IMG/VR virus record: IMGVR_UViG_2563366911_000003
DNA: 40,184 nucleotides
From: a virus
Lineage: Duplodnaviria; Heunggongvirae; Uroviricota; Caudoviricetes
Direction: 5' to 3' (one strand)
Within the stretch, counting starts at the first letter, position 1, and every line of letters begins with the position of its first letter. The position numbers and the translations under genes were made by a program. Below are positions 17,069-17,222 of the stretch, piece by piece. Below the pieces are notes generated by a model that worked only from the letters and a program-made list of their open reading frames with translations, searched no databases and was not told the DNA's origin.

Positions 17069-17144
17069 GCCGACTTAGCTCAGTAGGTAGAGCAACTGAC
17101 TTGTAATCAGTAGGTCACCAGTTCGATTCCGGTAGTCGGCACCA
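17069..17144 (+). tRNA. tRNA-Thr (anticodon UGU)
   Basis: Hand-folded cloverleaf: 7-bp acceptor stem (gccgact/agtcggc), D-arm, anticodon stem actga/tcagt with loop cttgtaa, T-loop ttcgatt, 3' CCA encoded; resembles recalled E. coli thrU. Confidence 0.85.
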
Positions 17145-17147
17145 TAT

Positions 17148-17222
17148 GCGGGTATCGTATAATGGCTATTACCTCAGCCTTCCAAGCTGATGATGCGGGT
17201 TCGATTCCCGCTACCCGCTCCA
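17148..17222 (+). tRNA. tRNA-Gly (anticodon UCC)
   Basis: Cloverleaf with anticodon loop cttccaa, T-loop ttcgatt, CCA end; resembles recalled E. coli glyT with a compensatory acceptor-stem change. Confidence 0.85.

Follow-up and report, generated by a model that had tools for sequence, protein, structure and literature searches.

The stretch of viral DNA analysed here (40,184 nt, referred to as the window) carries two adjacent tRNA genes, tRNA-Thr(UGU) and tRNA-Gly(UCC), in the late leader of a Rac-type lambdoid prophage. Judged by alignment, the origin of both is the pair of single-copy host genes thrU and glyT, and their role is, on balance, probably an extra supply of these two rare-codon tRNAs from an autonomous unit composed of promoter, leader, tRNA and tRNA. 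The Thr-Gly pair is an already known, widespread and routinely annotated module, new neither in kind nor in sequence. The following features were used.

16161-16703, + strand: Q-like late antiterminator gene, the upstream boundary (Pfam DUF1133, 354 bits; Phage_antitermQ, 27.2 bits)
16700-16728, + strand: candidate late promoter TTGATT-17-TTCAAT, read by eye and under the scan threshold
16783-16814, + strand: intrinsic-terminator-like hairpin (scan: 13 pairs and a T-run)
16965-16992, + strand: predicted sigma-70-type promoter of the tRNA unit (promoter scan; -35 TTGCGA at 16965-16970, 16-nt spacer, -10 TATCAT at 16987-16992)
17000-17065, + strand: conserved 5' leader hairpin (MFE fold; alignment of 23 distinct leaders)
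17069-17144, + strand: tRNA-Thr(UGU) gene, identical to host thrU (ARAGORN, Rfam, alignment to K-12)
17145-17147, + strand: spacer of 3 nt, TAT (read from the sequence; TAT in 121 of 124 modules of other prophages)
17148-17222, + strand: tRNA-Gly(UCC) gene, identical to host glyT except U6:A67 for C6:G67 (ARAGORN, Rfam, alignment)
17248-17269, + strand: weak, tentative terminator-like element after the tRNAs (downstream-region scan; TACGGC-ACT-GGCGTA followed by T7)
17585-17604, + strand: strong intrinsic-terminator-like hairpin upstream of the lysis genes (scan: 8 pairs, 5 GC, then T8)
17999-18214, + strand: P21-type holin gene, start of the lysis cassette and downstream boundary (Pfam Phage_holin_2_1, 119.8 bits; RefSeq essD)

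ARAGORN called two tRNA genes, Thr(tgt) and Gly(tcc), and no more in the whole 40 kb window. Against the Rfam family RF00005, whose gathering score is 29 bits, the Thr gene scored 73.8 bits (E 1.8e-14) and the Gly gene 65.6 bits (E 3.3e-12). Both thus belong to the family by cloverleaf sequence and structure, and with scores well above the gathering score and E-values this small, the calls are far beyond chance. An earlier note, made by a model from the sequence alone, had described two phage-borne, complete cloverleaves 3 nt apart with encoded CCA ends, similar to host thrU and glyT, and all of this agrees with the tRNA searches and the alignments: CCA is encoded at the 3' end of each gene, the Thr gene is identical to K-12 thrU at 76 of 76 positions and the Gly gene is identical to K-12 glyT at 73 of 75. 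The two Gly changes, C6 to T and G66 to A (gene numbering), together convert the acceptor-stem pair C6:G67 into U6:A67, which is the compensatory change that the same note had suspected in this stem. The identity elements for ThrRS are G1:C72, C2:G71, G35 and U36, and those for GlyRS are G1:C72, C2:G71, G3:C70, U73, C35 and C36. The former are all kept in the Thr gene through its identity with thrU, and the latter were found unchanged in the Gly gene by direct reading. As all aminoacylation identity elements are retained, the products of both genes should be charged and used as the host tRNAs are. Pair 6:67 is not among the GlyRS identity elements, so the U6:A67 substitution is probably neutral.

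The window represents a lambdoid prophage of the Rac type in full length, located at the attachment site of Rac beside ttcA. Over 37.4 kb it shares 99.98% identity with a prophage that is integrated beside ttcA in E. coli 19KM1766N. Compared with NZ_CP151005, it shows seven substitutions and a sole indel of 1 base at ~14783, which is non-coding and lies between the NACHT ORF and DUF1367. The gene order in the left part is intR, xisR, rcbA, ralR (with the RalA sRNA), recT, recE, kilR, sieB, racR and ydaT/U/V, followed in the middle by an AT-rich NACHT-type insert, DUF1367, YbcO, DUF1133 and the two tRNAs, and in the right part by a P21-type holin, lysozyme, Rz, trkG, terminase, portal, P22-type capsid and tail genes. 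The tRNA pair of this lambdoid prophage therefore has a Q-type antiterminator gene on one side and the lysis cassette on the other, as had been claimed; Pfam finds DUF1133/Phage_antitermQ upstream and the holin downstream, the latter followed by the lysozyme and Rz genes. The score of 27.2 bits for Phage_antitermQ is only just above the cut-off of 26 bits. The gene is annotated as ‘DUF1133 family protein’ in RefSeq and its equivalent in phage 683R6 as ‘antitermination protein Q’.

The promoter predicted at 16965-16992 would provide the tRNA unit with a promoter of its own, comparable to pT in phage 933W. The pattern TTGnnn-16 nt-TAnnAT is kept in 48 of 48 hairpin-class modules of other prophages (27 distinct promoter sequences), with differing spacers, and the promoter element ends 6-8 nt ahead of the hairpin in these 48 modules. 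The motif AACGGT after the -10 box was considered as a lambda-like sigma-dependent pause element, by which the promoter would be pR', and was rejected, as it is absent from other leader variants.

The hairpin at 17000-17065, whose internal loop holds tandem G.A, is placed straight after the conserved promoter and straight before the tRNA-Thr gene. In the window it consists of the outer stem GGTTCT/AGAACC, the internal loop GA/UGA, the inner stem GGGG(G)/(U)CCCC and a variable apex, which here holds a 13-nt tandem duplication (17024-17036 and 17037-17049). Across the leaders, the outer stem reads GGTTCY/RGAACC and the internal loop GA/(U)GA, and the inner stem is G-rich/C-rich. In the alignment of the 23 distinct leaders 87.6% of the cells are paired, versus at most 67% with slid partners; pair 8-74 is CG in 10, UA in 8 and UG in 4 of these leaders, and the covariation score was equalled in 0 of 500 shuffles. 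A search of Rfam at a permissive E-value over 16650-18050 matched no family to the leader hairpin, and the weak, sub-threshold matches in this region (STnc370, STnc100 and isrK) lie outside it. Interpretation of the hairpin as a K-turn, a degenerate tRNA or an intrinsic terminator was rejected, since a 3-nt bulge, a T-loop and a U-tract are all absent from it. Taken as predicted, the layout of promoter, 5' leader hairpin and two tRNA genes shows a self-contained unit.

Further upstream, just behind the Q-like gene, the region 16700-16814, with its weak promoter-like element and its strong terminator-like hairpin, is the one with sub-threshold likeness to the Salmonella sRNA STnc370 (30 bits). 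Its position mirrors that of the curated pR'/terminator of phage 21 and 933W, and going by position it is possibly the pR'/tR' equivalent, maybe a pR' leader RNA. Downstream of the tRNAs, a motif formed by GCACTGGCG and a T-run recurs in several otherwise different downstream variants; a stricter terminator scan does not call the element at 17248-17269.

Codon usage was compared between 47 prophage genes (10,864 codons) and 42 K-12 genes (14,748 codons), the host sample being only 50 kb of K-12. The threonine codon ACA occurs 16.5 times per 1000 codons in the prophage vs 5.4 in the host (odds ratio 3.07, p = 4e-18) and the glycine codon GGA 15.9 vs 6.0 times (odds ratio 2.67, p = 1.5e-14). Ranked by absolute excess, ACA is second and GGA sixth among all codons, while GGA is fourth and ACA seventh in the late genes. 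To our knowledge, glyT is the only UCC tRNA in the host; for UGU, thrU is given as the sole tRNA of MG1655 in PMC12445682. The excess of ACA and GGA fits a supplementation of two single-copy rare-codon tRNAs. Codon demand alone does not predict a Thr-Gly pair, because AGA (6.5-fold), ATA (5-fold) and AGG (4.8-fold) are enriched more strongly and yet the prophage carries no tRNA for them.

On the preferred reading, an extra supply of rare-codon tRNAs, the sigma-70 promoter of the unit would most likely drive its transcription in the leader of the late operon, with Q-modified late read-through from upstream adding to it. Both tRNAs would be freed by RNase P and the 3' processing enzymes, and the outcome would be more of two minor tRNAs decoding ACA and GGA, codons which the host uses rarely and the prophage genes about three times as often. 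Expression of the unit, its timing and a benefit for fitness are what we infer here. That both genes are so close to those of the host could also stem from a recent capture or from gene conversion, instead of from selection over a long time.

Of 5,426 complete E. coli genomes, 877 (about 16%, roughly 1 in 6) match a query of 57 nt across the Thr-Gly junction at a coverage of ≥ 80%; 169 genomes have the Rac-type flanks in common, and the junction pattern is present in at least 120 IMG/VR viral contigs. The pair is annotated in the GenBank phages vB_EcoS-683R6, Stx phage phi467, 606R7, 689R5, PhiR47_1, JLK-2012 and the LT-IIb phage SerU-LTIIb, and RefSeq E. coli such as NZ_CP151005 annotate it as tRNA-Thr and tRNA-Gly. 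In the GenBank phage records inspected, it sits between antiterminator and holin. The earlier note had called a Thr/Gly pair at this position less familiar. By its prevalence in genomes and phage records, the pair is not unusual. The literature searches returned no specific published description of such a pair in lambdoid or Rac prophages. The finding is correct yet ordinary, since the module is common and already annotated, and for the window itself it matters little.

A set of 124 Thr-Gly modules from other prophages was compared with the window. About 48 have the architecture of the window (promoter, hairpin, Thr and Gly), about 69 have Met - Lys(UUU)/Arg(UCU) - Thr - Gly, and six have Asn - Thr - Gly. 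The deposited phages and genomes contain a Thr-TAT-Gly unit which is 93-99% identical to that of the window and shows minor allelic differences, while its upstream partner (hairpin leader, Met-Lys or Asn) varies.

Among characterized systems, the ileZ-argN-argO genes of 933W (NC_000924) are close to the window in layout: 933W is lambdoid as well, and its tRNAs lie between Q and the toxin/lysis genes and decode codons which are rare in the host, as the window pair does. In the 933W record, they are found downstream of pR' and terminators, with a separate ‘pT, putative tRNA promoter’ and a terminator after the tRNAs. The earlier note had likened the pair to these Stx-phage genes, and the late-leader layout of the record matches. 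The 933W genes differ in that they are three, encode Ile and Arg isoacceptors and have no leader hairpin of the window type annotated; searches of the literature for ileZ/argN/argO found nothing specific. Phage 21 encodes tRNA-Asn and tRNA-Thr(UGU) (‘tRNA-Thr21’, OL657228; PMC12445682), the Thr gene being located between Q and a P21-type holin, as in the window. Unlike in the window, its tRNAs follow directly after the pR' terminator and a Gly gene is absent; moreover, the anticodon arm and T-arm of its tRNA-Thr are diverged, whereas the window Thr is host-identical. In the host, i.e., E. coli K-12, tyrU and a 116-nt spacer lie between the sequence sources thrU (b3976) and glyT (b3978), and thrT and tufB come after them; the window pair has a 3-nt spacer and another promoter and leader. 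The cluster of T4 (Gln-Leu-Gly-Pro-Ser-Thr-Ile...) also contains tRNA-Gly(UCC) and tRNA-Thr(UGU), and its Gly likewise has U6:A67. T4 differs in being virulent and in having a larger cluster, a Gly of ~85% identity and a Thr with an anticodon-stem change of the type G30C/C40G.

The alternative which survives best, although we regard it as unlikely, is that host tRNAs cut by the anticodon-arm nucleases of rival prophages are replaced or supplemented from the prophage copies, so that late translation can be finished. P2-OLD, PARIS AriB and Gifsy-1 HepS were considered as such nucleases. According to PMC12445682, tRNA-ThrU is the preferred or main target of P2-OLD and is preferentially severed by it, and cells are rescued by phage tRNA-Thr(UGU), that of lambdoid phage 21 among them, owing to their resistance to cleavage; for the phage 21 tRNA-Thr, resistance to P2-OLD is reported there from experiments. 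The targets of AriB, which it cuts at 40|41, are Lys(UUU), Thr(UGU) and Asn(GUU) (PMC12409363), and Thr(UGU) is a secondary target of HepS (PMC13043305). In related prophages, Thr-Gly has Lys(UUU)/Arg(UCU) and Asn(GUU) as neighbours. tRNA-Thr(UGU) was recently shown to be the key target in the classic P2-lambda interference and is also a target of PARIS. In more general terms, PMC12445682, PMC12409363 and PMC10264068 argue for defence evasion, and not codon compensation, as the main reason for phage tRNAs.

Both window tRNAs have, by direct reading, the paired motif C28-N-G30 / C40-N-G42 together with A37; this pseudo-palindrome is found at 17095-17111 and 17174-17190. The paired CNG pseudo-palindrome with A37 is tied to P2-OLD substrates in PMC12445682, the available text of which says nothing on cleavage of tRNA-Gly(UCC), and the literature searches turned up no nuclease with tRNA-Gly(UCC) as its target. 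Nuclease-resistant phage tRNAs, such as T5 tRNA-Lys against PARIS and tRNA-Thr6 and tRNA-Thr21 against P2-OLD, have the anticodon of a nuclease-targeted host tRNA, and so does the window Thr with the UGU of ThrU, which is a major target of AriB as well. Its arm, however, lacks the changes of the resistant ones: the Thr gene equals thrU throughout, positions 27-43 of both window tRNAs are of the host type (likewise in 110 of the 124 modules), and C28-U-G30 / C40-A-G42 and U36-A-A-U-C|A41 are intact. Since the anticodon arm is identical to that of the host, the window allele is not a nuclease-resistant variant, and the host-identical Thr is predicted to be sensitive to P2-OLD. Resistance to P2-OLD requires an altered CNG motif and a shortened stem together, either factor alone being insufficient, and host tRNA-ThrU expressed from a plasmid gave little or no protection (all from PMC12445682). 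Codon compensation or counter-defence had both been offered in the earlier note; the former is backed by the codon comparison (ACA 3.1-fold, GGA 2.7-fold), while the host-identical arms speak against the latter in its usual form, a nuclease-resistant variant.

Alleles changed in the anticodon arm are seen in relatives of the window. Thr carries G42U/C together with U43C in about 10 of the 124 modules (L006 3995-4148; L015, L016, L021, L037, L039, L049, L113, L117 and L125), which belong to at least four different upstream architectures. Six of these modules have Gly A38G as well, and two of the six also G39U. The Thr changes break two stem pairs, leaving an anticodon stem of 3 bp and an altered 3' CNG, in agreement with the two-factor rule that has been published for resistance to P2-OLD. 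In those relatives, but not in the window, the combination of Thr 42/43 and Gly A38G changes looks like nuclease evasion. Taken together, about one sixth of E. coli genomes have a prophage tRNA-Thr(UGU), mostly host-identical and in a minority changed exactly in the cleaved arm, which constitutes a natural allelic series for weighing codon supply against defence evasion in the tRNA carriage of temperate phages. The recurrent 42/43 alleles in relatives and the leader hairpin are the sole parts perhaps worth further work. ARAGORN does not call the Thr gene of JLK-2012. Two further copies have a thrU-like body with another anticodon: the first copy in the LT-IIb phage (L007 1122-1197) has UCU, is annotated as tRNA-Arg and also shows A31G, and an IMG/VR copy (L085) has UUU at the anticodon (G35T).

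A broader version, which we hold to be rather improbable as a whole, would make the Thr-Gly unit one component of a counter-defence toolkit, widespread among lambdoid prophages and directed against the Toprim/HEPN anticodon-arm nucleases P2-OLD, PARIS and HepS of their rivals. The pair would travel together because both are single-copy host tRNAs with the paired CNG motif; host-identical alleles would boost the supply via a strong phage promoter and serve as the pool for the recurrent Thr G42U/U43C and Gly A38G changes; and the 5' leader hairpin, in which the G.A pairs stand in tandem, would have a function as an RNA element within the unit.

Selection on the tRNAs bears on a further possibility, namely that they are neutral passengers without a selected function, i.e., recent host captures or copies homogenised by gene conversion, hitch-hiking between lambdoid modules. 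The near-identity to the host genes is in line with this, and so are the limits of inter-phage similarity, which starts ~5-15 nt before Thr and stops at the 3' end of Gly, as expected for recombination joints. Against it, several unrelated backbones carry the module, among the many E. coli genomes and viral contigs given above. Over the window plus six copies that come from five GenBank phages, seven loci in all, identity within the tRNA pair is 97%, whereas their leaders fall to 53%, and the promoter is retained in all 48 hairpin modules. Thr equals host thrU in 73 of the 124 modules. For the Gly pair 6:67, 53 of the 124 modules have the host C:G, at least 35 have the U:A of the window and four have U.G intermediates, so base-pair changes are compensated. 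Wide occurrence, the difference in identity between tRNAs and leaders, promoter retention and compensated pairs with U.G intermediates indicate that purifying selection acts on tRNA function, and a passenger status of the genes appears decidedly improbable.

Very little speaks for the tRNA genes being mainly processing or structural punctuation of the late transcript, or targets of integration or recombination, instead of a tRNA supply. The late-leader position and the conserved structured hairpin directly upstream would agree with punctuation, and tRNA genes are, as general knowledge, common integration sites. Neither function needs conservation of the whole mature tRNA sequence, of the anticodon and of the identity elements, and a promoter of their own implies that the tRNAs themselves are the product.

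That the segment is the chromosomal tRNA cluster of the tufB operon misread as phage DNA is virtually impossible and was refuted by synteny, despite the near-identity to thrU and glyT. The K-12 operon, downstream of coaA, has the order thrU-8 nt-tyrU-116 nt-glyT-6 nt-thrT-tufB, an order which the window does not have: tyrU, the 116-nt spacer, thrT, tufB and coaA are all absent around the window pair, there is no similarity between its flanks and those of the host operon, and the surrounding 40 kb are a Rac-type prophage from intR through the tail genes. In addition, the best-matching genome has a second, separate match to the query besides the prophage copy, presumably the thrU...glyT locus of its chromosome. 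The prophage context and the absent host genes are as stated in the earlier note, according to which the pair is not in the thrU-tyrU-glyT-thrT-tufB arrangement.

Some other parts of the prophage were noted. The RalA antitoxin sRNA (window 1557-1735, Rfam 225 bits) lies opposite ralR and forms with it the type I toxin-antitoxin pair of Rac. The potassium-transporter gene trkG (20039-21496, GC 0.38) comes after the lysis genes and before those for packaging, a location which it also has in K-12 Rac, and is among the genes richest in the codons of the two tRNAs (ACA 20.7 and GGA 26.9 per 1000). Two overlapping AT-rich ORFs at 11960-12763 and 12715/12829-14217 (GC 0.32-0.33) are in different frames, with A-runs at their junction. 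The first has a Mrr_cat-like N-terminus and the beginning of a NACHT P-loop, and the second a NACHT C-terminal helical domain; PADLOC gave weak P-loop matches alone for these NACHT-like ORFs. Together, the ORFs within 11960-14217 resemble an anti-phage defence gene of the Mrr-NACHT kind which has undergone a frameshift and occupies a moron position.
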